Below the pieces are notes generated by a model, which ran no database searches, was not told the origin of the DNA, and worked only from the letters and a program-made list of their open reading frames with translations. A program made the position numbers and the translations under genes. 64,000 bases of DNA from Naegleria gruberi. Its lineage: Eukaryota. Of the stretch, positions 5,580 to 46,556 are shown one piece after another; the first letter of the stretch is position 1, and every line of letters starts with the position of its first letter. The stretch lies in NCBI GenBank assembly GCA_000004985.1, contig GG738857.1. The stretch is one strand, 5' to 3'.

Positions 5580-5977
5580 ACGAATGATTGGGTCAACTGT
5601 GTATGAAAAGGATTTTTTCGGGATGTAAAAGAATCGAGAAAATATTCCCACTCACTAGGTACTAAAATTTATCAGTCAGAGTAGTATCATCTGATTAGAT
5701 CTAGGCATGCTTGAAAGGAATTAGCAAAATTCTATTACAAAATTTGAATAGTTTTTTGTAAATAATAACAAGAATAAGCTCAAAATTATTCTTTTTATCC
5801 TTTTTTCTATTCTTTTAAAATATAATTTAAGGTTTACACAAGCAACACTACCAATAAATTGACCATCAACGTGGAAATGGTCCATGATCTGGTGGTTGTT
5901 TGAGTTCGTTGATAATCACAAAAATTACAAACCAAATTTTTATTGCTCTTATTAACATTTTTTTCAAAGAAGCCAGA

Positions 5978-6058
5978 GCAGACTTGGCCGAGAGGTTAAG
6001 GCGCGAGACTCGAAATCTCGTGGGGAAACCTTCGTAGGTTCGAATCCTGCAGTCTGCG
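5978..6058 (+). tRNA. tRNA-Ser(CGA): tRNA-Ser (anticodon CGA), class II with long variable arm
   Basis: Folds as an 81-nt cloverleaf. Acceptor GCAGACT/AGTCTGC, anticodon stem CGAGA/TCTCG with loop CT-CGA-AA, 13-nt variable region, T arm GTAGG-TTCGAAT-CCTGC, discriminator G. Confidence 0.9.
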
Positions 6059-6411
6059 ACTGACTTTTACTTTCTCCCAATATCAGCGATCTTTTCTCCC
6101 GTTGTTTAACTTTAAATACTTCAACTTTCTATATCTTCACATCCACAACTGTTATACTATCATATCTGAAAATATTACCTCTCTTCTCCAAGTAATTATC
6201 TAGAACGAGCTGTTCTAAACTGTCGATAGGTTTTTTAGCTTGAACTTTTCTTCGTCAAAGAGTTGGGACTATGCAGATGTGGAGAGTGTATGTGAAGAGA
6301 ATCTTGATAAATGTAATTATTGTGCTCATAGGAATGTTGAGCAAAAGTCTAGTTGTTATGTTTTTCTGCAAATATGAAATTGAAATTGCAAATAAAGTTC
6401 ATTAATAAAAA

Positions 6412-8876: not shown

Positions 8877-8991
8877 AATAACCAAAGTTTAAACACCTTC
8901 TGACCTAGATGTTGGTTAATTAAGAGATTTTAGGTTCCGATTTATTAAGATATTAAGACATTAGCATATTTTTATGAGGAATGAATAAGAT

Positions 8992-9063
8992 TCCCGTGTA
9001 GTCCAATGGCTAGGATACCTGGCTTTCACCCAGGAGGTCCGGGTTCAATTCCCGGCATGGGAG
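8992..9063 (+). tRNA. tRNA-Glu(UUC): tRNA-Glu (anticodon UUC)
   Basis: Folds as a 72-nt cloverleaf. Acceptor TCCCGTG/CATGGGA (one G-U pair), anticodon stem CCTGG/CCAGG with loop CT-TTC-AC, 4-nt variable loop, T arm CCGGG-TTCAATT-CCCGG, discriminator G. A T-rich tract lies downstream. Confidence 0.9.
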
Positions 9064-9707
9064 AATCATTTTGTTTATTATTCAAAAAACTAGTCTTAAT
9101 TCGTGATAGTTCCTGTTTGAGATTTTCGACCACAAGCTTAGGTCAGAAATTATTTCCTTCCAAACAATCCGATGGGATATCCTGTTGTTTTTCTTATCTA
9201 CCATTGACGCACTTGTCCCTTCTTCAATGAAACTGAATATTTTTAAAATTCTTACTTCATTCCAATAGAAATAGTTCTCATCTTCAACGCTTAGTGTTTT
9301 TAATTAAAAAATGAACAGTTCTAACTAATTTACTAGACTTGGGCTAGTTCCATTGTTTTCGTTTGTAAAAGCAAATGTCGAGATGTGGCCACATTTGACT
9401 CCTCAAAGAAATTCTTCGCTCAACAACAAATTCCATTTAACTTTTTTCGAATCGTAAAATAAATTAACAAAATAATCATGAAGTTAACAAGTATCTAAAA
9501 TAGTTTCTGACTACCATTCTAAACAAATAACTTTTCACAAGAATCATTTTCACATCATCAAGTACCCAATTACCCAACCAAAAAAAAATCATTCAATACC
9601 CTACCTCATCCTAGTCTGGTCAATTGATACGTATTGACGTTAATTTTCACAACAACACTCATCAACGCCTGTTTTCCATCAAAACTAATCAAAACTAATT
9701 CAAACTA

Positions 9708-17847: not shown

Positions 17848-20068
17848 TCAATCAGATTGTTTATCACGCTTTTTGTTGTAATACTTTTGATAGCACGAAT
17901 TGCAAATCAAACCAAGTCCAATATCTTTTCCCAAATACTTGTTGTAATCATCGATTGTTGTGTAGGAGGTATTATGTTTGCTGGCGAGTGAAGTTGCACC
18001 TCCACAATTTACACATTTTGACAAGTGTTTCTTCAAGGAATTCAAATCTTCATCATTTAAACATTCAATTTCCTCCTCTTCGTCATGATCGTTATATTCT
18101 TCAATTTCATCTCTAGGTCCAGTCCCCAACTCTTCATCCATCTTGTCTTTGCGAATTGGTTTTTGAGTGGCAATTGAAACCACACATACAGTTTTATAAC
18201 CAACTCCGTACTCTTTCAAGTCTGCCTTTACGTTCAATTTTGACGGCCACCTTAAAGAAGTTTCTCTTTTTCTTATAATAGATGTGACTGGCAAGGTAAT
18301 CTTTTTCTAATTGTAATCTTAAATAGAAACAATGTTTGATAGGATCAATACTTCTATCAAAGTAAATCTTCAATCTGGTAAATCTAAGGAATTCTAGGAG
18401 TCCAATCCTTTCACAATTTTCCTGAGTGATGGTTTTAACTTTGTTAATATCAATCAGTGGGCTAAATCTTAATAGGAATAATTCAGTATCTTGTTTAACA
18501 TACATGTCAAACAGTGTACCATTCAACACAAGCTCCTTAATTGTTGAAGTTTTCCCATCCTGCTCTATTTCGCTCTCTTGTATCATAGCTGGGACAAATT
18601 GGTCCTCTGTTTCATTGGTGCTGTTGGTTCCAACAACTGAAGGTTCTTCTTTGAGAATCAAAGGAATTGACGCATTGGATGGGTTGTTATCATCTCTGGA
18701 TTTTAGAGATGATGTAATGATTGATTCAATACCTCTTAGAAGAGCACTACCACCAGAGCTTTCTTCAATAATTTCACATGATTCAACATTCTTATTCAAA
18801 TATTCATCTTTTAGGTAGGGGCTCAATTCTTTTTTAACTTGTTCTAATCTTTCAACTGAAACCATTTTTTCCAAACTTTTTCTAAAATACACTAGCTTGG
18901 TAATGGCTCCACAGAAATATAAGAGTTTAACACCATTGTGAAACATCATCATGGCCAATGGTTTGGTAATCTTCTCGAGTGCTTGTTGAATTTCATCTTC
19001 CAAATCTTGATAATGAGGTGGAAGTTCTTCACTCTCTGGATCATCAAATAGTTCAGCCATAGCTTCACATGGATCAATACCATGCTTGGTAAAAACGTCA
19101 TGAATCAATGAAATGCCACTTGCATTTCCATTCTTGAATGTTACAATCGGTTCCTTCTCTTTCATCTCAAGCATGATAACATCAAGAGTCAGATGTCCTA
19201 AATCAGCAATCATAACACCACTATTACTGACGAGTAAACTGGCATGGACAAAATGCTGCAAACAAGAACTCTCTTCCGTAATGTAGACGTCATTAAGATT
19301 GAGCGTGTTTGATGAAAGTCTTGTAAAGGCATCAAGAATCGCATTTCTATAAATCAACTTTACATAATCTGATGTACCAGTTGGACATGTGAAAAACAAT
19401 GCGCTCACACCATGGAAATATGACTTGTTGCGTGTTTTTTTAGTGGTCAAATTTTTGAAAATGTTTGTAGTAATTAATGAAATTAAATCAGCAACCCTTT
19501 CTCTTCTGCCACCCTTGAACTCAATTTCTAATAACTCTGAGACCATGAACACCTTTTTGATATTCTCAATTTCTTCCCATGATGATGGGGATGTTGAGAC
19601 CTCTTCAGGAGAGCCAGTTTTTACTTCAGGAGAACCAGTTTGGTTGACCCTTATCCAAGATCTACTTGGAAGAAAATCTTTTTTGTCTCCATCAAACCTC
19701 AAGAATCTGCAGAGAAGGTCGGTTCCTTCTTTCGGTACAGTACAATTACATGCCTTAATAAAACTTGAACCCATATCAATATAATAGATTGTCTTTCCAA
19801 TATACTTGGAAACGTTGAATTCTTTTTGGAGAGAAGGAAGATTATCAACTGATTCCAAACTACTTGGTGCAACTTTGGATTTGGTTTGAGTTCTAACGAC
19901 TTGGAAGGCTTCTTGTCCATCGTAAATTACTTGGTGGACATGTTCGTTTATATCCTCAGCTTGATTGTTCTCTTCTGTTTTCTTGTCGGTGGTTGTTTTT
20001 CGTTGTTTTGGCACTGGTTGGTGTTTACAGTCTTTCCTCTTGCTGTTTTTCCTTTTTCTTGCTGGCAT
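17848..20068 (-). CDS. Highly divergent Hsp70/actin-fold (ASKHA)-like protein with acidic linker and C-terminal CxxC...CxxC zinc-finger-like tail
   Basis: Two-exon model: 18331..20068 and 17848..18287, joined by a 43-nt intron 18288..18330 (GTTTCT..CAG, phase 1) that links the two overlapping track ORFs. Degenerate Hsp70-like motifs occur in the right order (YYIDMGSSFIKA; FFTCPTGTSDYVKLIYRNAILDAF; VMIADLGHLTLDV; GGSALLRG). The tail reads CVNCGG...LICNSCYQKY. Confidence 0.45.
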
Positions 20069-34162: not shown

Positions 34163-34303
34163 TATTTATTTTGATGGAATCATTCTTGAGAAGTGATACC
34201 ATCATTCCATTAGAGTGGGTCCAGTCTTTGTGCTATTCTTTGAATCCAAATTTTGAGGAGAAGGACAAATCAAATTGATAAAAATTCTACCATGGCATTC
34301 CTG

Positions 34304-34327
34304 TGTCAAAAGTGAATTGACGAGTCA
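34304..34327 (+). promoter_or_regulatory. Candidate promoter-proximal element: TGTCAAA plus the 16-mer GTGAATTGACGAGTCA
   Basis: The 16-mer at 34312..34327 is identical to 40505..40520. TGTCAAA at 34304..34310 recurs 25-80 nt upstream of four cluster ATGs. Confidence 0.4.
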
Positions 34328-34334
34328 ACAAAAA

Positions 34335-35500
34335 ATGCGTAAATCAACATCTGAAAAAACTCTTCCAGAAACAATCAACATAAAAAACCCATCCGAAGAT
34401 GAAAAATCCACTCTCCAACAACAAGATTGGTTTTGTGAATTAGTTTCAACCTACACAGAGCACAAGATAAACGCACTTGAGAAGGAAAATCAAAACCTAA
34501 TCCAAAAGTTGTTGGCTCTAACAGTTGATCAACGCTATATTAAATTTCTTGAATCTATTCCTTCATTGATGCAAAAACAACAAGAGCACAACAAACAAGG
34601 AAACTCTGACAATGAGTACAAAAAGTTAAACGAGAAGCTTGATGAAGTAATTGATGATTATGAGGACGTCAAGAGGAAATTAAAAAAAGCAGAAGAGAAT
34701 GCAAAAAAACCAAAGATGCTTTTGTTGAACAGCACTATTATAATGAAGAGAATATTAAAGAAATCACCAGGAAAGAAGAGAAGGTACGTGAAGAATTGGC
34801 TACCTTGAATGGAAAGTACCTTTATGAAAAGGAATCGTTCTTGAAACAAGTGTCCGAGTTAACAAAAGAAAGAGATCAACTAAATGATCAAATTTCAATT
34901 TACAAAACTCGAAATGATCCTGCCTTGCTGATGAATGACTTTTCTGATAACACAGTCAAAAAGATACATGATGAATATGTCACTTTGAAATCACACGATT
35001 TGAATTCTTTTGTGGGAAGAGTAGTTGAAGAACATTCATTAAGTGAAGATCAGGAATTTGATTTTGATTTAAAAATTGTTGCATTTGCATTCAAAACAGT
35101 CCGTAAACTCATTGAAGAAACCTATTCTGAAATGAATTTCGAACTAATTGGCAAGAAACTTACAAATGAAGAATCAGAAAGAAACCGCCTTATTGAAACC
35201 CTCGTCCAGACAATTGCAAAAATGGAAGAAATTGGAAAGAACAAGAAATTACAACAAGCTGCCAGAGAATTTATAACCAAACTCGTGAAATTCTATTGTA
35301 ACATGTTTCTCATTGATAAGAAGCTTGAATTGGTTTGGGCTTCAACTGGATCTCTCTACAATCCTGAATGGTACGATTCAAGAAATGCAACCAGTAACAT
35401 TGTAGTCACTAATGTTTTCAAACCTGCTCTCATGGACACATTCACCAAAACAGTCTACGAAAAAGGAATTGTTGAAACTACCCAAAAAAGGAAAAAATAA
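34335..35500 (+). CDS. Coiled-coil protein with conserved C-terminal domain (cluster family member 1); 1-nt frame break
   Basis: ATG 34335 (CAAAAAATG context). Frame A reads ...VKRKLKKAEENAKK, then frame B reads TKDAFVEQHYYNEENIKEITRKEEKVREEL... The switch is at the A7 run 34703..34709. The C-terminal domain begins 'KTRNDPALLMNDFSDNT' and ends '...LELVWASTGSLYNPEWYDSRNATSNIVVTNVFKPALMDTFTKTVYEKGIVET'. Confidence 0.65.
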
Positions 35501-35522
35501 CAATTATTACCTATATCAATAT

Positions 35523-38500
35523 TTATATTAAAACTCTCTTGTATGTAATTAAATATTCAGGATAGCATTGATTCCTATCATAGATAATATATTCATTGTA
35601 GGTGTGTTGTGATACCGACTTGGATCTTCCAATAACACTGTCATAAACTCTTCCATTTGAGTTTTCAATGACAGGTGGTCTTCTTTCATTTCTCATCTTT
35701 TCCCTTGTTTTGAAAACCATCTGACCTAACAGAACTCTACTGAGAAATATAAAACACTCACCATCCTTATTCGAAACACAATATTGATCACTCTTACTAC
35801 AGCAATCAGCAAAGTATATTCCAGCTCCAAACAAACCACTCAAAGCACTCAATCTTTCATCAAAGCCGTGTTCTGAAATGATTGACTTGACTACTTCTGT
35901 TGTTCCATGCCATAAATAAACTTCATTCACATTGGAATCTAATTCACACATTTCGTCAACAAAATCATTTCTAATTGGTATATCCATTACCTTCTTTTTA
36001 TCCTTATAGGAAATTAGGTGTTTCTTCTTTGATAGATACATTTCATAAAGTGATAAATTCTCAATTCTTTCCACTTTTAGAACTTGTAACTTGTTATATG
36101 GAAATGAATCTTTTTCATGGTTTCGTTTCTTTCCTAATGTAATTGTTACACATGTCTTATCCAATAAATCTTGAATATCCTCTTTTAATTCAGCGGTAAC
36201 ATCTATAATTGACATGTTATTTTGATTTGATTTCCAATAGGAAGGCTTTTGTTTCGTTTCCTTTCTTCTTGTCCCACGAAAGAATTCATGTCTTAATAAC
36301 TCAGATGCAGATAAAGTACAAATTTCTTCACGAATATTAATTGAGTCCATTAGCGTTTTCAAAAGAGATGAATATTCATCGAGTCGTTCCATTGACATGA
36401 TGTCAATTACCATTTTCACGAAACAAAACATTTCTTTCTGGAATGGTAATTTGTTTCCCTTTTCCTCTATTTTCACAACATTATCAAATCCATCCAATAT
36501 TAATTTAACTTGTTCATCTTCAATAATTTTCACATACACATTCGCAGCTCTAATATTTCCATGAACAAATGAATAGGTATGAAAATGATGAATGGCTGAA
36601 AGAATCTGAAACCAAATATCTTCCCATCCTGATCTAATGGATGAAAAATCTTTCAATGTTCCAATTGAGTAATATGGCATAACAATACAAAGTTTATCTT
36701 GACAAAGATAAAATCCAATTAATTCTGCAATATTTGAATGTTTGATTTTCTCTAGAATTTCAACTTGTTCAATTACCATTTCAATTTTATCCAATGAATA
36801 TTGTTTAACACGATAGAAAATATTCGAATTCTTATCAACTGCCTCAATAAGCATATAATTCAGAAATGCAGTTTCACTAATTGTAGTCAATTCCAAAGTG
36901 CTTACATCTTGAATTCCTATAATTTCTGATAGTAAATCATAGAATCCTGATCGATAGAGTGTAATTGATTTGTTTCGAATATCATTTCTGTTAATTTGAA
37001 GAGTTTCGAGTTCAGTTTCTTGTTCCATAATTTTTAGACAGGGCGCAGTTGATGTTGAGTTGTTTGTTTCCCACAATTTTTTCTCAATTTCAATTGATCT
37101 TTTGCGTGCTTCAATGTTCTCACTCATTAATTTGTAATTAATTCCATATTTAGAAATATCAAATTTAGAAATTATTGTTAAAGTTAATTGCATATTTTTA
37201 AATTCATTACAGATGGTAGTAATATTATTGATAAAATCAAGGCAATTATTTTTCATATCATCAATAAAGTAGCAATATCCTTTCAATTTCTTTTTCAATA
37301 AATGATACAATTCCAAATTTGGATTTTCTTTCAATAAGGAAAATAATTTTGAAATGGAATCTCCAATATCATTTGTATCATTGCTTATTTCTGAAAATTC
37401 AAGTGTTGAAATATTACTTGAAAAATTTGAAAGAAAATTTGCAACTCCACTCAATTGCTTATTACATGTATTAATCCATTTCTCCAAATTAGTCGAATAT
37501 TCTTCAAATGTTAATTCCAATTCTTCATAATTCGATATTTCATTACATGGAATTTCTTCTCCACCATTCAAAAATTCATTAATTTCTTTAGAAATTTCAC
37601 TCAAACTCTTTACAAATTCAATAAGAAAATTTCCATAATCACTTTTCTTAATTTGATTATTCATTGATTCATGGATTTGAAATTTGCTTCGAAATTCAAT
37701 TAAATCTTGAGGATTTTGTGATGAATAAATCGATTTTGAATTAATTTGGATAGGGCTGAGAAGATTCTTAATATCTGTAAACTTTTTCATGTCATATTCG
37801 TTAATTATGATATTTCTAATAAGTCTATCAGTGGTAAATCTTATAGTTTCCAATTGATTTTTCCTATTTTTGTATTCGAAACCTAATTGGGAAAGCTCTG
37901 TAAATATTGATGCAAAATGAATGAATTTAATTTCTATTGGAGATGTGCTAGTAGATGCTTGACTCACTTCTACATTAATTTCTTTTGTTTCCACATTAGT
38001 CTTATTTCTTTTTTCAGATTTCATTTCCTTTTGAATCGTTTTTATGGATTTCCCGCCACATTTCAATGCTATTGATATTTTGATATTAGGATGTTCTAAT
38101 AATAATTTTCACAATTTCAATTTTATCTCTTTCGCAAGCAACTTGCAAAGGTGTTTTAACCTTCCAAAATTGGTAAAATAAAAACTTGCAAATTAATACT
38201 TACCATCTTTAATCTTAAAACTCAATTAATTAAATATCAAACTTACATTCTGAATAATTCAATAAATGTATACTCATCATTAACAAGTTACTTACACCCT
38301 TATTAACATCCAATTCATTTGATTCCAATAATAATTTCACAATTTCAAGATGACCATCATAACATGCAATAAACAAACAAGTTTGTTCTGATTCTACACC
38401 ACAAAATGTCTTGAATAACAAGCTAATAAGTATTCATTTTGCTTCAAATCATACTTACTTCATTGACATTGACAAGTGACAGTAAATATTTGACAATCTC

Positions 38501-38782
38501 AACATTTCCACTTCTACAAGCATGATACAATGGAACCTAAACACATTTAACAATATATGATGATATAAAACCTACTCCGATTCTTGGATTTACCTTCTTT
38601 TCTTCTAACAAGTATTTTGTAATTCTTGTTGAATTATTAGAAATTGATTCTTCTAATAGAGTTTTGTTCGAAACAAGAGTTTTTGAAAAATCGGACAAGG
38701 ATTCAGCTAATGAAATGAATTGCTCTAAATTATCACTTGAAATTGACGAGATTACTTTCTTCTCAAGTTTCTTTTTCAACAT
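35523..38782 (-). CDS. Ankyrin-repeat / pseudokinase-like / PARP-catalytic-domain protein; 1-nt frame break
   Basis: Exons 38576..38782, 38459..38536, 38296..38409 and 35523..38160, with introns of 39, 49 and 135 nt. Ankyrin units: VPLYHACRSGNVEIVKYLL; TCLFIACYDGHLEIVKLLLESNELDVNKG; KTPLQVACERDKIEIVK|LLLEHPNI, where | marks the frame break at the T4 run 38106..38109. The kinase-like region lacks the catalytic Asp (HGNIRAAN where HRDxxxxN is expected, DGF where DFG is expected). The C-terminal PARP signature is H (LWHGT), Y (GAGIYFA), E (YNEYIIYD). Confidence 0.75.
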
Positions 38783-38800
38783 TTTTTTTAAACTAAACTT

Positions 38801-40432
38801 TTAATTCTTTTTTGACACTCTGACAATTACTTTTGCCTTCTCATAAATACTTCTCGATTGCAACTGCATTAGGGATGGAAAGACTGTGCACTGAATCTTT
38901 GGAATGGTTGTGTTATTTCTTGCATCTTGTTCGTATGGATTAAAATTGTCCTTTGCTTTATACCAAACGAATTCCAACTTTTTTGAATTGGTAAACATTT
39001 TCATGTAGAGTTCAATTGCCTTATCAAGTAATTCTGAGGTTAGATTACTAACTTCCCGATCTCTACAAATATGCTCAGGATTCTCAACTTTGAATTTGTT
39101 GAAAACGTGTTCAATGGAGGTGAAAATCTCATTGTGGCAGCTTTTGAGTAGTTTTTTCTTATCTGAATCTTCCAATGGCTTGCATCCATAACCTAATTTC
39201 TTGTCTTTCAATCTGTGTTGTAATGATTTGCCCTTATTGTCGTCTTGAGCTGGTGAAAAGAGGTATTTGGCTAATTCCATTTCAATTTCACATTCAAAAT
39301 CTTGTGCTACATCATCTCCATTAAGATTTTCACTCATTTCTTCACAAAGAGAACCCAATGAATTCTTAATTTCAAAATAAGCATCCTTAATTGACTTGGT
39401 GGTATTGTCGGAGAAATTGTTCATCTCAAGAGCTGGATCATGTTCTGCTTTGACAATTCTAAAATTATCTTCAAGTTGAGCAATCTTTGATTCTAAACCA
39501 TTTTTCAGTTCGATTAGTGCTTCTTTTTCTTTCTCAAATCTTGATTGGTTTTCACTTGCTTCGGTTCTCATTCTGTTTTTATCCTTTTCCAGATTTGAGA
39601 TTTTACTTTCAAGAGATTGAAGGTTTGCCTGGAGTTCAAGTGTGTCATTTTTAAGATCCTTATTATCACTTCTCAAATCTTCAAGCTTTTTGGTTGTATT
39701 TTTGTGGCTGTCTTGTTCAGTCTTCAACTTTTGTTTAGTTTCATCATGTTCACTTCTCAATTTGTTGAAATTCTTTTCTAAAGTGTCCTTTTCCTTCTTG
39801 AGATCTGTAAATTCTTTTTTCTTTGTATTCAATTCAGTAATCTTTTGATCTTTTTCACTAACCAATTGCTTTTCACGGTTCTGCAAATCATCATTTTCTT
39901 TCTTTAATTTCTTCTCATTATCTCTTGCTTCATTGCTTTCTTTGGTTAATTTTTTAATTCTTTCATCTTGATTTTGGGATTTTTCTAATGAGATTGATTT
40001 AAGGAATTCAACAAGTTTCTTATCAACTTGTACAGTGTCTAATATGTCTCTTAATCTGTCAACTTCCTTGGTATGCTTTTCTGACTCTTCCTGGATGTGG
40101 TTAACTTTGTTTTTTTCCTTATCAAGATTACTTTGGAGAATAGAAACTTGTTTTCTTTGACTCTCTAAATCTTGTTTAACCTTGTCAAGTTCGTGTTGGA
40201 GGATTTGTGCTACATTCTTTTCCTGGTCCCAATTACTTTGCAGATTGGAGGTTGTTAGCTTTTCTTTATTAAAGGCCTCTTCAATTGACTTGAGTTGAGT
40301 TTGAAGTTGTGAAATTCTTTTTTGATAATGGGAGGGATCTACTTCTTGTGTTGGGGGTGGAACATCACTTGTTGGTTGTTGTTGGGGTTTGATGGTGGAT
40401 GATGGTTTATTTGAATTGGATTCGTTTGTCAT
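38801..40432 (-). CDS. Coiled-coil protein with conserved C-terminal domain (cluster family member 2)
   Basis: I place the start at ATG 40432 (AAAAAAAATG context), not the track's non-ATG start at 40528. A long heptad-rich K/E/Q/L region is followed by 'KAEHDPALEMNNFSDNT...LEFVWYKAKDNFNPYEQDARNNTTIPKIQCTVFPSLMQLQSRSIYEKAKVIV'. Confidence 0.75.
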   Translation of the reverse strand: MTNESNSNKPSSTIKPQQQPTSDVPPPTQEVDPSHYQKRISQLQTQLKSIEEAFNKEKLTTSNLQSNWDQEKNVAQILQHELDKVKQDLESQRKQVSILQSNLDKEKNKVNHIQEESEKHTKEVDRLRDILDTVQVDKKLVEFLKSISLEKSQNQDERIKKLTKESNEARDNEKKLKKENDDLQNREKQLVSEKDQKITELNTKKKEFTDLKKEKDTLEKNFNKLRSEHDETKQKLKTEQDSHKNTTKKLEDLRSDNKDLKNDTLELQANLQSLESKISNLEKDKNRMRTEASENQSRFEKEKEALIELKNGLESKIAQLEDNFRIVKAEHDPALEMNNFSDNTTKSIKDAYFEIKNSLGSLCEEMSENLNGDDVAQDFECEIEMELAKYLFSPAQDDNKGKSLQHRLKDKKLGYGCKPLEDSDKKKLLKSCHNEIFTSIEHVFNKFKVENPEHICRDREVSNLTSELLDKAIELYMKMFTNSKKLEFVWYKAKDNFNPYEQDARNNTTIPKIQCTVFPSLMQLQSRSIYEKAKVIVRVSKKN

Positions 40433-40454
40433 TTTTTTTAAAGACGTACGAAAA

Positions 40455-40536
40455 TTTGACGAGTTGTAATGTAATTTTGAAACCTGCATTCCGTGTTCCG
40501 TTCTGTGAATTGACGAGTCATCATTCACTTGTCAAA
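40455..40536. promoter_or_regulatory. Divergent promoter with repeated TTGACGAGT / TGTCAAA motifs
   Basis: The 134-nt region between ATG 40432 (-) and ATG 40567 (+) contains TTGACGAGT at 40456..40464, GTGAATTGACGAGTCA at 40505..40520 and TGTCAAA at 40530..40536. Confidence 0.4.
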
Positions 40537-40566
40537 TGTTTAACTATCAAACAAATAATCAAAAAA

Positions 40567-41778
40567 ATGGGATTCTTTGGGTTTTTCAGTGATGACAATA
40601 AAGAAGAAATAAAGAAGGAGTTGAAGGCGGCAAAGGAACAAATTGAATACCAAAAGAAAGAGGTAGAAAGCCAGCGAAACAAAATTATAACATTAGAAAC
40701 AAATAACACCAATTTGCAAACTAGAAACACAACTTTACTCCAAGAATTTAAAATTTTAAACCCGAAACTTGAAAAATTAACACTTGAAAAACAAAATTGC
40801 GAATATATTTCCTCTCAATATCAAGCAAAAGCACAAGAATTGAACAAGAAATTACAAGAACTCGACAAGCAGTACAATTCCACTGTTCAAAATCTCAACA
40901 CTGAATTACAATCTTGTAAATTTCAATTCAATCAAGCAATCACTGAGTGGAAGCAAGAGAAGAACAAATTTGAATTAGAATTGAAAAGTGTAAAACAATC
41001 AAGAGATCAACAAATTTCTTATTCCACTCAATTACATTCAGCATTGACTGAAGAAAGAGAGAATTTCATAAACTTGTCCCAAACCAAAGAACAAGAAATT
41101 GAAAAGTTGAAAGCTGACATTATTTTAATCAAAGCTCAAAATGATCCAGCACTTGTTGTCAATGATTTCTCAGATGAAAGTCCTAAACAAATTAGAGATT
41201 TGTATCTTCAATCAAAATCAAGTATTGACACTTTGACAACAACCTTGGAAGACAATTTGACAGAAGATGAACAAGAACAATTGGAAATTATTATAGCCAA
41301 GACACTCTTTGAGAAATTAGAAGAGACTGTTATGAAATTTGTGTGTGAAACAAAACAAGTTGACAGCAGTGATAGAAAGCTCATTGGTGAATTATTGAAA
41401 TCAGATATTGAAATGAGAAAGCTTGTTATTTATCATACTTCAGTTGGATTAATGAATCAAATTAAGGAACAATTTGCCAGTTTTAGTAATTTTATTGAAA
41501 ATTGTAAAGATGAAGAAAGAATTCAAATTCAAAATGAAATTGACACAATGTCAACAAGTTCAATTTCAATGCTAGCAATGATCTTGAGAAATGAGCAAAA
41601 TATTGGTTTCGTTTGGTATAAACCAAAATCAGATTTCAATACTTTAGAACAAAGATCAAGAAATGCTGATAAGAAAATTGTAATTGATACTTGCATTTAT
41701 CCTTGTTTAATGTTGAAGGGATCAAGAAGTGTTTTTGAACAAGCAGTTGTTACAACAAAATTAACAAAACACAAATAA
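40567..41778 (+). CDS. Coiled-coil protein with conserved C-terminal domain (cluster family member 3)
   Basis: ATG 40567 (AAAAAAATG context). Coiled-coil N-terminal half, then 'KAQNDPALVVNDFSDES...IGFVWYKPKSDFNTLEQRSRNADKKIVIDTCIYPCLMLKGSRSVFEQAVVTT'. Confidence 0.75.
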   Translation: MGFFGFFSDDNKEEIKKELKAAKEQIEYQKKEVESQRNKIITLETNNTNLQTRNTTLLQEFKILNPKLEKLTLEKQNCEYISSQYQAKAQELNKKLQELDKQYNSTVQNLNTELQSCKFQFNQAITEWKQEKNKFELELKSVKQSRDQQISYSTQLHSALTEERENFINLSQTKEQEIEKLKADIILIKAQNDPALVVNDFSDESPKQIRDLYLQSKSSIDTLTTTLEDNLTEDEQEQLEIIIAKTLFEKLEETVMKFVCETKQVDSSDRKLIGELLKSDIEMRKLVIYHTSVGLMNQIKEQFASFSNFIENCKDEERIQIQNEIDTMSTSSISMLAMILRNEQNIGFVWYKPKSDFNTLEQRSRNADKKIVIDTCIYPCLMLKGSRSVFEQAVVTTKLTKHK

Positions 41779-41994
41779 ATATTTACAAATATTACAAAAT
41801 ATTTAAAAATATTGAAAAAATTACTGTAAATTTTGATCATCACACTAAATCTGCATTAACTTTCTACACAATTGTAGTTGACGGAATTTACGGAATTGAA
41901 AATTGTAATATGACTTAATTTGACATGGGAAGTGTCCATTTCAACACGTCATGTCAAAGTTTCTAATTATCAATTCTCAAAAAACAAAAAAAAT

Positions 41995-43871
41995 ATGAGC
42001 ACCAGCACCCTCATCAAACCACAAGCAGGTAAAAACTTTGTCGTTTGCATTGACTTTGGATCTTCAGGTTCTGGCAGTTCAATTCTCTTCGTAAAGGATG
42101 AAGATAAAATTTTCACTCTCAAAACTTATCCAGACTCCCCTAACGTAGTTTACAATAAGAATATGTCATGTATTTTATATGAAGATGGTAAGAGACATAG
42201 TATTGGTTATACTGCTAGAAAGACAATGTTCTTTGAAAATGATGACGAAGATTCAGATGAAGATTCCGGTGAAGATTCGGATAGAGATTCAGATAGTGAA
42301 AGTGAAGAATCTCATGGATCAACTTCAACTGCTCCATCAAAAAAATCAGCAACTCCACTAAAAGATAGAAAATTTATCAGAGATTTAAAAATTCAATTCA
42401 TGGAAGCAACAAAAGATGAGAAGGAAATTTCAATTCCAGAAATAGTAATTTCCAATGATGGAACAACCAAATCTTTACTTGATGTGATGGCAGATTACTT
42501 ATCCATGTTATTCACAGATTTTATCATGAAGAGTTTAAAGAATAACGATAGCTCTGTTAAGAAAACTGATGTTCGTTGGTGCATTACAGTTCCCGCCAAC
42601 TATTCAGAACATCAAAAATCCCTAATGAGGAAAGTGGCATGTAAGGCAAAGATTATAGATAAGGAAAATTGTGATGAGAGTGATTTGATTATCATTTCTG
42701 AACCAGATGCTGCTACCATGTTCTGTATGAAACATAAGGCTAAATCTAAACCACTTACAAATGGTGAAACTTTTATGGTAGTTGATGCTGGTGGTGGTAC
42801 TGTAGATGGTAAGTTTGAGAAATTCTTGATTTAACATTTAAATTCTGTAACAGTCAGTTGTCATATGCTTGAAAATGGTAAATTGAAAGAGTTGGCAGTT
42901 CAAAAGGCAGAGCTATGTGGTTCTACATTTATTGATAGAGAATTTATTAAGATTTTAGAAGAAAATTGTGATAATTTCAAAGAATTTACAGAGAAAAATC
43001 CAGAAACTCTTGTCAAGATATTATCAATTTGGGAAGATGTTAAGAGAGGTACTTTGACAGTTGACAAGAAATTGACATTTGACACATCTCCAATGTTTAA
43101 AAAAGCAAAACCTAATAGTTCAATTTACAAATCAAGATCTACCAAGATTGCATTAACAGATGAACAAATGAAAAGAATATTTGACAGTCAAGTGTCAAAA
43201 GCACTCAAATTGATTGATGAAGTTTATAGAGATTATGAAGAAGATTATCCAAGTAGAAAGATGGATCACTTATTTATTGTTGGTGGTTTAGGAGATAATG
43301 GTTATTTCCAAAATCGTATTAAGGAAAGATTTGAAAAGAAATTTAAGGAAATTTTAATTCCACTTTTCTGTTCGACAGCTGTCATGGAAGGAGGTGCATT
43401 ACTTGCTAAGGATCCATCATTCGTTCAAGAAAATCAAAGTTATCATATGGTGTTGGTGTCATGGAAGAATTTGAAGAAGGGCATCATGCTGAAAGCAAGT
43501 ACAAGGTCATTAATGGTAAACATATGGCAGTTGACGTGTTGGATGTTTTTGTTGAACAACGTGAAGAAGTTGAAATTGATAGAGAAATTGTTAGAGAATA
43601 TGAATGTTTACCAGGTGCTACTCAAATTGATGTTGTTCTCTATTCATCTATTAAGAGAAGAGAAGCAATTCCTTATATTGATTCACCACTAGTTTCTAAA
43701 GAGGAAACAATTACAATTCCTTTTAGAGATTCATCAAAGGAGGCAGATAGAAGAGTTTTTATTAAATTCTTCTTTGGTAAATCAGAATTAATGATTACTG
43801 TTGAAAATGCACAAGGTGAAGTTAAGGAAATTAAGAGAGATTTTGAAGCAAACTCACTTGCCCTAAAATAA
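41995..43871 (+). CDS. HSPA12-type Hsp70-like ATPase (paralogue 1); 1-nt frame break
   Basis: Exons 41995..42808 and 42854..43871, with a 45-nt intron (phase 1). The junction GGGTVD|VSCHMLE matches GGGTVDLTCHKFE in the paralogue. Motifs: VVCIDFGSSGSG; WCITVPANYSEHQK; IISEPDAATMFC; FMVVDAGGGTVD; LFIVGGLGDN. The frame changes at the A4 run 43430..43433, after which the second frame gives ..SKLSYGVGV, aligning with RMRMTYGVKA in the paralogue. Confidence 0.75.
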
Positions 43872-44116
43872 ATAGTTGAAATTCCATTCACAAAAATCTT
43901 AATATTTATTAGTATGAGCGAAATATAACCTCAATATCATTATTACAATCTGATCTTTTTCGTTTATCAAAACTGTAGAAAGCTTTTTTTGAACTGTAGT
44001 CACTCTCGAATCGTGATTCATTGTAAAACTTGTCAAACTTACCGATCAGAATTCCGTATGACGTACGATTTCTCATTTCTCATCAGTTTATTCTGTTCCA
44101 TTAACACACAAAAAAA

Positions 44117-46556
44117 ATGTCATCATCAACTGTTCCTGTTCGTTCAGGTTCCCTCAACAAGAAGAAAGTTGTCATTTCCATTGATTTTGGTACATCAAGA
44201 ACTGGTTTCTGTTATTCACTCACCAATGATGTGAAAAAGACTCGAGTTAAGAATACCTCATGGAAAGATGCACCAAGTGGAGTTTCATTCCCAAAGACTC
44301 TCACTCAATTACTTTATGAAAAGAGTGATACAAGAAAACCTGTTGCTTGGGGTTACACTTCACTTGACATGTTGTCAAGAGAATTTGAAGATGAGAGTGA
44401 ATCTGATGAAGATGAAGAAGGTGGTGAAGAGATTCCAGCACAAAATAGCAAGTATTATCATTTCAAGACATTCAAAATGGGATTATTCAATAATCCATCT
44501 GGTATGGTGAAGGATACAACTGGTGTTTTTGAAAAGAATGTTGGTGAATTGATAGTTGACTATTTGAAATTATTATTCCATGATCAGATTAAGCCAACTG
44601 TTGAGAAATCATTGGGATCTAAATTGAATCTTGATGAAGTTACTTGGTGTTTAACAGTTCCAGCCATTTGGAAAGATGAACAAAAATCAGATATGAGATT
44701 AGCTGCTTACACTGCTGGTTTAACAAAGACACCTGAAGCATCTTCTGATGATTTTAAGATTATTCTTGAACCAGAAGGAGCTGCTGCTTATTGTATGGAA
44801 TATCAAGCTTCTAAAGGTAAACCATTGAGAGAGGGCGAATCATTCCTTGTTTGTGATCTTGGTGGTGGTACAGTTGACTTGACATGTCATAAATTTGAAA
44901 AGGCAAGATTGAGAGAATTAGCTGAAGGATCTGGTGATGCATGTGGTTCTACATATTTAGATGATGCTTTTATTATTTATTTGGAAGAATGTTTTGGTAA
45001 GAAATTTGTTGAAACCTTAAGGAAAAAGTATGGCCAAACTTATTTGGACATTTTAAAGATTTGGGAAAGAACAAAAGTTACAACAACAGATTTAACAAAA
45101 GATATTAATGTTGATATGCCTGGTCAATTAAGTAGTTTTTTAGAAAGTGCCAATGTTAAAAGTGATAAATTCAGAGCTAAAAGAGGTCAACTCAAAATTA
45201 CAAGTGAAGCTTTACAAACAATTTATCAAGATTCATTAGAAAAAACAAGAAATCTTGTTGAAAAGCAATTAGAAACAATCCAATCAGAGACTGGTAAAAT
45301 GGTTGATTATATTTTCATAGTTGGTGGTTTTGGTGCTTCCAAAGTAGTTCAAAACTTTCTAATTGACAATTTCTCTTCACAAGTTAAGGGAATTGTAATT
45401 CCAAATGAACCTGCTGAAGCTGTTGTTGATGGTGCTGCATTATTAGGTATTGATGATTCATTAATTTCAACACGTAGAATGAGAATGACTTATGGAGTTA
45501 AAGCTCAAAAAGGAAGTGAAGAAATATTCGATACTTTTGTAATTGCTAATCAAGAACTTGAAGTTGATCAAGGAATTTCAAGAGAATACAAAGTTCAAAG
45601 AGCTAATCAACAAGCTATGAAAATAATCATCTACAGCACTAAATTGAAATCAATTACAAAAGTTGACGAAACTAAATGTCATAAGATTGGTGAAATTCAA
45701 GTACATATGACAGATATGACAGGTGGCATGGATAGAATAGTGAAAGTTACAATGTATTTTGGTAGATCAGAAACTAGAGTTACTGCCATTGAAAAGAATA
45801 CTGGAATTGAGTATAGTGCATTAATTAAGTATGATGGTGAATTATTTTCACATGGTGAAAGTATTGCTGACACTCCACCAGTTCAACCTCACCATTTGTA
45901 AGTATAGAATGTTATATTGAAGTTTACAATTTCTAACTGTTAAAAGAATTTTTGCAAATGATGTTTCAGGATCAATGTGGGCAAGAGATGCTTTACCAAC
46001 AATGAGTTTACTTAAAGTAAGTATTCTTCCATGATGTTTTTTACTAATATTCAATTAGACCTCTCATAATAACAGAGTAGGAGCACTTTATGAAGCATGT
46101 TATGCCTTTTTAGAAACAAGAAAAGAAACTTCAGATATTTCATCGTGTATTCTTCATAATCATGATTCAATCATTATTTATGATAAAAAACCTGCAACTC
46201 CATCACTTGTTTCTGATTACATGATGAAATATAATGCCGACGGTGGCAACAACTTTTTAAAAGTATTCGAAACTGTCGAACAAGTTCTCAAATCGAGTAA
46301 TAACGAGGAATTCAAACCAATAGTTTTCTTTATGACAGATGGTGCTTGGCACGACGACGGAGCACCTGCCTACTTGGAAGGCTTAATGTTAAGATATCCA
46401 GATTTAACAGTTCATGTCATTAATTTGGGTAGTTCAATTAATTTTGAATTGATGAATAGAATTGCAAAGATTGGTAGAGGAACCATTTCAACATCTGGAA
46501 TGAGCGCTGTAGAATTGAAGAGTACCTATCTCAGCTTGCTTCCTTACTTGGATTAA
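44117..46556 (+). CDS. HSPA12-type Hsp70-like ATPase fused to a C-terminal von Willebrand factor A (vWA) domain
   Basis: Exons 44117..45897, 45947..46016 and 46059..46556, with introns of 49 and 42 nt (phases 2 and 0). ATPase motifs: VISIDFGTSRTGF; WCLTVPAIWKDEQKSDMRLAAYTAGL; ILEPEGAAAYC; FLVCDLGGGTVDLTCH; IFIVGGFGAS. The vWA MIDAS motif DVSGSM appears only after splicing, and a later FFMTDGAWHDDG follows. Confidence 0.8.

Follow-up and report, generated by a model that had tools for sequence, protein, structure and literature searches.

HSPA12-type Hsp70s are widespread, occurring in animals, fungi, protists, and bacteria. A 2026 review of HSP70 proteins mentions neither cofactors nor exchange factors dedicated to this type. 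Here, we describe a gene cluster containing 2 such ATPases in a 64,000-nucleotide stretch of Naegleria gruberi DNA (contig GG738857.1 of assembly GCA_000004985.1; hereafter the window). The cluster (positions 34335–46556) includes six genes from three families: 2 HSPA12-like ATPases, one without (H) and one with (V) a C-terminal von Willebrand factor A (vWA) domain; 3 coiled-coil proteins, which we designate cc1, cc2, and cc3; and 1 protein with kinase-like and PARP domains. An earlier note, made from the window's sequence, had counted seven genes from three families; the three families stand, and the number of genes falls to six, which is also the number that the note itself listed. This neighbourhood of genes is genuine and conserved and appears not to have been described before, and we give about an even chance to the reading that this heterolobosean neighbourhood encodes one linked machine, in which HSPA12-type Hsp70 ATPases work with cc cofactors and, in Naegleria, with the PARP–kinase.

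The locus was compared with the closest described systems. (i) The HSPA12A/HSPA12B-type Hsp70s of animals and fungi, and the bacterial "Hsp70 family proteins" with a DUF8340 domain, share the Hsp70 motifs of H and V, and the H protein of Naegleria fowleri gives a weak DUF8340 match; the fusion of one paralogue to a vWA domain with a metal ion-dependent adhesion site (MIDAS), the conserved pairing of H and V, and the linked cc family set the present locus apart, and none of these is reported for HSPA12 in the literature searched. (ii) Prokaryotic conflict systems that contain chaperone–vWA pairs and HSP70 proteins were described by Kaur et al. (2020; PMC7159879), in a paper that does not mention Naegleria. 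The MoxR (AAA+)–vWA pairs and vWA ternary conflict systems of that study resemble the cluster in bringing together a chaperone-type NTPase, a MIDAS vWA, and (in Naegleria) a gene for an enzymatic "effector". By contrast, the NTPase here is Hsp70-like and not AAA+, the vWA domain is fused to the ATPase, the genes are spliced, separately oriented eukaryotic genes, and VMAP and effector-associated domains are missing, as is any PADLOC match. The cluster is thus a combination of known kinds, that is to say, an Hsp70 with a cofactor and a chaperone ATPase with a vWA domain, for which we infer the mechanism given below. A literature search returned nothing on the cluster or on HSPA12 in Naegleria, and no link between HSPA12 and either MIEAP or GrpE.

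HSPA12-like ATPases and their neighbourhood

The spliced model of V (44117–45897, 45947–46016, and 46059–46556) is 100% identical over 782 residues to XP_002679444, the record of which is titled "chaperone protein [Naegleria gruberi strain NEG-M]", and matches Pfam HSP70 (E 1e-14). The phosphate and adenosine motifs of Hsp70 are found in both ATPases (IDFGTS, EPEGAAA, DLGGGTVD, and IVGGFG in V; IDFGSSGSG, EPDAA, DAGGGTVD, and IVGGLG in H), and the MIDAS of the V vWA domain is complete (NDVSGSM for DxSxS and FFMTDG for TD). These features bear out the earlier assignment of two HSPA12-type ATPases, the second fused to vWA. V itself reaches only E 0.027 for Pfam VWA_3, and its homologues carry PF00092/PF13519. 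The named matches bear the titles "heat shock 70 kDa protein 12A-like", "actin-like ATPase domain", and "Hsp70 family protein", the best of them being HSPA12A-like and actin-like ATPase domain proteins with 24–30% identity. Among the 120 matches listed, none is a canonical HSPA1/8 or DnaK orthologue, and the closest named relatives are of the HSPA12A/B type rather than canonical Hsp70, DnaK, or Hsp110. V is well conserved, with 61% identity between N. gruberi and N. fowleri, and H, once its frame break (Table 1) is repaired, aligns end to end with its N. fowleri orthologue at 43% identity and contains no further stop codon. Both ATPases have an acidic insertion rich in Asp, Glu, and Ser in lobe I of the ATPase domain (42220–42330 and 44370–44430; e.g., DDEDSDEDSGEDSDRDSDSESEE), the position of which is kept in N. 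fowleri.

On the N. fowleri contig L003, all six genes are contiguous: V (762 residues), H (600 residues), 3 cc genes (326, 399, and 580 residues), and an SNase–kinase–PARP gene (1353 residues). All significant tblastn and tblastx matches between this contig and the 64-kb window fall within 34.3–46.6 kb; no gene on either side of the N. fowleri block has an equivalent in the window, nor do the genes beside the cluster in the window recur on L003. (A 560-residue gene beside the N. fowleri block, considered as BBS1 by its size, encodes an F-box protein without similarity to the window.) Within the block, H precedes V in N. gruberi and V precedes H in N. fowleri, and several orientations have also changed; the set has therefore stayed together through rearrangement.

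The linkage extends beyond Naegleria. Acrasis kona has H followed by V in tandem on a short contig. An uncultured contig (L005) carries cc (−), H, V, cc (+), and cc (−), its V being 34% identical to that of N. gruberi; a second (L001) carries V, cc (−), and cc (+), with 44% identity in V; and on contigs L008/L009, V (43% identity) is followed by one or two convergent cc genes. Adjacency of V and cc is found in at least five protist lineages, among them the 2 Naegleria species and 3 uncultured ones (L001, L005, and L008/L009), and two or three cc genes adjoin the ATPases in every lineage with enough flanking sequence. The cc family itself has few members: among 1.84 billion representative proteins, a profile search picked out only 8, one of them metagenomic and the others from N. 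gruberi and N. fowleri. Because so rare a family lies repeatedly beside V, chance adjacency is implausible, and the arrangement is strong evidence for functional coupling. The earlier note had allowed that the three families might prove scattered in related genomes and had proposed a search for neighbouring orthologues; instead of being scattered, all six genes form one block in N. fowleri, and the V/cc adjacency recurs on contigs of three further lineages. Linkage of the PARP gene has so far been seen in the two Naegleria species only, and the gene is absent from the three non-Naegleria contigs, the flanks of which are short.

Several observations concern the ATPase genes elsewhere. The V orthologue on L005 was called as two genes (590 and 124 residues), and one frame aligns across the gap at 5900–6168, which is either an in-frame intron or an interruption of the gene. 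N. fowleri has a second V–H region (VFQX01000029.1; L006 8700–14785 versus L003 1715–7799), a copy of 6.1 kb with 99.8% identity that includes FDP41_002290 and its neighbour and lies about 84 kb from the main cluster; it arose by segmental duplication very recently or else reflects an error of assembly. In Anaeramoeba flamelloides, several near-identical HSPA12–vWA genes with consecutive accessions (L007, P0071 cluster) represent a second protist lineage with the fusion; some of them are titled "alpha kinase/elongation factor 2 kinase", likely a mis-annotation, as only Hsp70-like and vWA domains were detected. No cc gene was found by tblastn at the Anaeramoeba locus or at the N. fowleri duplicate, and the duplicate is also without a copy of the PARP gene. 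One of the closest non-heterolobosean relatives of the ATPases, the bacterial-type P0014 (JGI 3300059473; 32% identity), lies in a tight same-strand operon with an AAA+ ATPase, a Fer4_12 protein, and large unannotated proteins. The operon, which is unrelated to the N. gruberi cluster, may be a prokaryotic or viral system and a candidate ancestor.

The coiled-coil and PARP partners

The earlier note had described three coiled-coil proteins with a common C-terminal domain; its coordinates hold, and the domain (about 230 residues) aligns across the paralogues with 27–35% identity and with invariant positions DPAL..N.FSD, VW, N, P.LM, and V. Between N. gruberi and N. fowleri, the cc proteins share 23–28% identity, compared with 61% for V. 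The AlphaFold2 model of the domain is confident (pLDDT 82.7) and shows a bundle of helices and, at the very C-terminus, a β domain of six strands; the same layout of helices plus six strands was obtained when the last 150 residues of cc3 were modelled (pLDDT 86.2). Several cc members, including P0124, P0126, and the product of L005 7558–8901 (−), start with MG...S (MGLSFS, MGNGVS, and MGGSGS), and cc3 begins with MGFFGF. The MGxxxS start resembles an N-myristoylation motif and suggests membrane tethering, and the cc proteins, which have no obvious targeting peptide, appear to be cytosolic.

The predicted fold may resemble that of GrpE, the partner of DnaK. A Foldseek search with one model of the C-terminal domain placed GrpE at ranks 1 and 2 of 350,542 chains; sequence searches of the PDB gave only five distinct GrpE sequence families. 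The motifs FNPYEH.A or TFNPEKHEDA and RVVTRASVE or KVICPATVE of the cc proteins resemble the GrpE signatures FDPYEHEA (GRPEL1) and RTLRPALVG, respectively; in consensus form, the second pair reads R.V..A.V for cc and R.LRPA.V for GrpE. In hhalign, the whole cc β domain aligned in the GrpE register, with a P value that fell from 0.027 to 0.016 as members were added and a probability below 3%. Against shuffled sequences scored with a hidden Markov model (HMM) of the GrpE C-terminus, P0124 was surpassed in 0 of 500 cases and L001_525 in 4 of 500. All of these scores are weak. As in DnaK–GrpE, an Hsp70-family ATPase is accompanied by a protein that is predicted to have a long N-terminal helix or coiled coil, further helices, and a small six-strand C-terminal β domain.

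A second resemblance is to MIEAP (SPATA18). The last 83 residues of cc1 match Pfam MIEAP (PF16026) at positions 124–195, the last 72 of its 195 positions, with 21.3–21.8 bits (E 2e-4; gathering cutoff 27 bits). This sub-threshold match is found in 1 of the 12 cc members scanned, and the profile search of 1.84 billion proteins contained no named MIEAP protein. In Mieap, coiled coils at the N-terminus precede a structured C-terminal region, an architecture similar to that of the cc proteins; its orthologues are reported in metazoans only (PMC10845071). Our leading hypothesis, which we favour tentatively and rate at somewhat less than an even chance, is that the cc C-terminal domain is a GrpE-like or MIEAP-like cofactor module. 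The cc proteins look more like dedicated Hsp70 cofactors than like the generic oligomerising scaffolds suggested earlier.

The remaining gene encodes a kinase-like and a PARP domain in one open reading frame (ORF; 35523–38066, −), with Pfam matches to PARP (2.4e-25) and, partially, to Pkinase (2e-10). The PARP domain is closest to those of tankyrase-1/2 among solved structures (E 1.5e-17), and alignment to tankyrase-1 shows the H-Y-E triad to be present (LWHGT, GIYFA, and YNEYIIY). The kinase-like domain of N. gruberi reads HGNIRAAN and DGFD and has a deletion of about 23 residues over the activation segment; the Asp residues of the catalytic loop and of DFG are lost along with that segment, whereas the counterpart in N. 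fowleri keeps HCDIKPEN, DFD, and APE. Judged by these motifs, the kinase looks active in N. fowleri and degenerate in N. gruberi, and the earlier term "pseudokinase" is right for the latter species. A homologue search with the kinase–PARP ORF returned the N. gruberi protein itself only.

Upstream of the kinase, splice enumeration yielded an open reading frame for ankyrin (ANK) repeats (introns 38593–38537, 38458–38410, 38295–38207, and 38203–38161). Between 38161 and 38593 (−), the ANK exons are broken up by four or five mini-introns of 40–57 nt within about 430 nt, a density far above that of the rest of the cluster, and in one of the splice solutions there may be a micro-exon of 3 nt (AAT). 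When one A is removed at 38106–38109, the reading EIVK-LLLEHPNIKIS... continues as an unbroken ANK repeat into the kinase ORF. The reference annotation starts the PARP gene at the ATG at 38024 and leaves the ANK exons out, so that the frame break is avoided. The earlier proposal of one ANK–pseudokinase–PARP gene at 35523–38782 is therefore correct as to the domains but not as to a single frame, since the ANK part joins only once that A is removed. In N. fowleri, two SNase-type domains replace ANK and are accompanied by the kinase and an extra coiled coil (L003 11858–16005), and the PARP domains of the two species are 46% identical. Tankyrase (ANK–SAM–PARP) thus shares with this gene the closest PARP catalytic domain with its H-Y-E triad and, for N. 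gruberi, N-terminal ANK repeats. Because no SAM domain was found, the ANK repeats are out of frame, a kinase-like domain is inserted, and SNase domains take the place of ANK in N. fowleri, the gene is not a tankyrase orthologue.

Explanations of the locus

If the six genes encode one machine around the HSPA12-type ATPases, the cc proteins would dimerise through their long N-terminal helices, and their C-terminal helix-plus-β module (GrpE-like or MIEAP-like) would dock on the ATPase domains, making the cc proteins dedicated nucleotide-exchange or tethering cofactors. The MIDAS of the vWA domain might capture a protein ligand, which the H/V pair could then remodel at the expense of ATP. In Naegleria, the PARP–kinase might be a client or a regulator, or could provide a signalling output through ADP-ribosylation (and, in N. 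fowleri, phosphorylation). Stress or quality-control signalling is the likeliest process to be served, with defence as a further possibility.

Several results weigh against this reading. The structural match was not reproduced with the trimmed cc3 model, for which GrpE appeared only at rank 48, and most cc members do not beat shuffled sequences against the GrpE C-terminal HMM. Pfam GrpE gave no match at E ≤ 10 for any cc sequence (true GrpE fragments score 83–111 bits), and a PDB profile search with the cc C-terminal module also gave none at E ≤ 10. The cc proteins further differ from GrpE in having a larger helical part and in occurring as several fast-evolving paralogues per genome, and use of a GrpE-type exchange factor is not known for any eukaryotic cytosolic Hsp70. 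The PARP gene, linked in Naegleria only, may be a lineage-specific neighbour and not part of the machine. Finally, three of the six genes are frame-broken (described below), and the set may be partly non-functional in this N. gruberi strain. A bolder extension, which we regard as doubtful, is that the cc family, and with it the C-terminal domain of animal MIEAP, derives from GrpE and would be the missing exchange or tethering cofactor of HSPA12, forming an ancient eukaryotic cytosolic chaperone module; in Naegleria, this module would have been wired to a PARP–kinase with sensor domains that are swapped between species, in a multi-family cluster of a sort rare among eukaryotes, as a stress or anti-pathogen switch.

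The earlier note had likened the locus to a stress or immune conflict system, in which the HSPA12-like protein is the NTPase, vWA the adaptor, PARP the effector with ANK and pseudokinase as its sensor, and the cc proteins the scaffolds. Such a system would set off ADP-ribosylation upon encounter with an invader, for example a giant virus or an intracellular bacterium. This reading, which we hold to be plausible though unlikely, fits the retention of the six-gene block in N. fowleri, the fast divergence of the cc paralogues, the swap of ANK for SNase at the N-terminus of the PARP protein, the decay of the kinase in N. gruberi only, the frame breaks in three genes, the recent V–H duplicate in N. 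fowleri, and the existence of the prokaryotic chaperone–vWA and HSP70-containing conflict systems cited above. Several results stand against it: H, V, and cc3 are all without a PADLOC match, and the matches for cc2 and the kinase are generic (coiled-coil and kinase); no recognised immune adaptor domain, be it Death, TIR, STAND, or another, turned up in the Pfam scans; the three contigs outside Naegleria carry no PARP gene, short as their flanks are; V is well conserved; and the literature search found nothing on these genes. It is also conceivable that the cc proteins are a protist branch of the MIEAP (SPATA18) family, forming condensates in a lipid- or mitochondria-associated quality control, with the HSPA12-like ATPases regulating cc assembly and not the reverse. 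The match of cc1 to the end of the MIEAP profile, the common architecture, and the myristoylation-like starts, which would suit membrane association, speak for this; a score of 21.8 against the required 27 bits in a single member, the missing named MIEAP proteins, and the reported restriction of Mieap to metazoans make it improbable.

The genes might instead be mere neighbours by descent, through residual synteny and tandem duplication. Tandem duplication alone accounts for adjoining paralogues, and compact Naegleria genomes place unrelated genes close to each other anyway. But V and cc, which are not homologous, are adjacent in five lineages, down to 34% identity in V; the adjacency persists under different orders and orientations; and flanking genes are not kept even between the two Naegleria species. 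An origin without coupling is therefore very improbable.

The repeated pairing of ATPase and cc genes offers a concrete candidate partner for HSPA12-type Hsp70s and hints at a role for the Hsp70 that is fused to vWA. Should the links to MIEAP and GrpE, weak as they are, prove right, the poorly understood human tumour suppressor Mieap/SPATA18 would be tied to the biology of Hsp70 cofactors. Eukaryotes seldom keep non-homologous genes together in conserved clusters, and the locus is therefore also of interest for the question of what preserves them. In N. fowleri, which causes lethal infections in humans, the PARP partner keeps an apparently active kinase, in contrast to the degenerate copy of N. 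gruberi.

Gene models, promoters, and surroundings

The coordinates of the genes, frame breaks, and the divergent promoter region are collected in Table 1.

Table 1. Genes and other features of the cluster, in window coordinates.
Feature	Position	Strand	Details
cc1, about 390 residues once frame break repaired	34335..35500	+	C-terminal domain 34817-35497
Frame break in cc1	A7 run 34703-34709	+	1 nt; ORFs 34275-34808 and 34796-35500 overlap in two frames, no joining intron
Pseudokinase-PARP, NAEGRDRAFT_47537 (P0134), 833 residues	35523..38024	-	Kinase ~36267-36842, PARP ~35538-36110
ANK exons, about 150 residues, 3 repeats, 4-5 mini-introns	38086..38782	-	Pfam Ank/Ank_2; ATG 18 nt past cc2 stop
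Frame break, ANK versus kinase-PARP ORF	A4 run 38106-38109	-	+1
cc2, 543 residues, NAEGRDRAFT_79006	38801..40432	-	C-terminal domain 38804-39523
Divergent cc2/cc3 promoter region	40456..40520	+	Two exact TTGACGAGT sites (40456, 40510) and second 16-mer copy
cc3, intact 403-residue ORF	40567..41778	+	C-terminal domain 41071-41775
H, HSPA12-like ATPase without vWA, about 610 residues	41995..43871	+	Intron 42809-42853 (GTAAGT..ACAG)
Frame break in H	43417-43425	+	1-nt deletion
V, HSPA12-like ATPase with C-terminal vWA, 782 residues	44117..46556	+	Introns 45898-45946, 46017-46058; vWA ~45947-46553

Several apparent breaks in the ORFs are introns of 42–57 nt with a GTAAGT donor and an AG acceptor. 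An explanation of all breaks as introns was rejected at three sites, where no GT..AG intron brings the two frames together and a shift of ±1 lets the homologous reading resume. Three true ±1 breaks, in short homopolymer runs, thus remain once introns are accounted for, as many as the earlier note had reported. Apart from the break, each of these genes reads through and can be aligned with its counterpart in N. fowleri; the lesions must then be recent, or else be assembly or allelic artefacts. In the case of cc3, the reference gene NAEGRDRAFT_65183 (148 residues) covers only the last 148 residues of the 403-residue ORF, and this reference model is probably cut too short.

The earlier claim that the genes share promoter-proximal motifs applies to the cc genes and not to the ATPase genes, at which none was found. 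The 16-mer GTGAATTGACGAGTCA lies at 34312–34327 (+), 8 nt upstream of the cc1 ATG, and is repeated identically at 40505–40520; these are its only matches in the window, even with 3 mismatches allowed. Its core TTGACGAGT has three exact sites in the 64 kb (34317, 40456, and 40510), all upstream of cc genes, and with one mismatch or fewer it has 28 sites versus 10.6 expected. The motif was not found in N. fowleri promoters. The 22-nt and 18-nt spacers that had been noted around the PARP gene are both exact. In both Naegleria species, a cc gene is followed by the PARP gene on the same strand, with a spacer of 18 nt in N. gruberi (38783–38800) and 114 nt in N. fowleri (L003 11743/11858). A spacer of 18 nt has no room for a separate promoter, and transcription of the ANK–PARP gene must therefore either start within cc2 or be shared with cc2.

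The window is nuclear DNA of N. gruberi with a GC content of about 30% and densely packed genes. The low GC content and dense ORFs had prompted consideration of a prokaryotic or giant-virus origin, which was rejected because the introns are spliceosomal, genes for BBS1 and PLC are present, and some of the products match N. gruberi proteins at 100%; P0121 (NAEGRDRAFT_79006) and P0134 (NAEGRDRAFT_47537) are exact matches to annotated ones. Outside the cluster, the genes are ordinary eukaryotic ones, encoding BBS1, PI-PLC, a DUF4116 repeat protein, MatE, F-box/Sel1, and a coronin–gelsolin–villin protein. Also outside it, at 17848–20068 (−), two ORFs (18194–20068 and 17848–18294) overlap in different frames, and an intron scan gave no canonical joiner; this is possibly a further frame break or a non-consensus intron, and bears on the baseline of assembly errors. 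Two tRNA genes, tRNA-Ser(CGA) at 5978–6058 and tRNA-Glu(TTC) at 8991–9064, lie among the protein-coding genes of the window.

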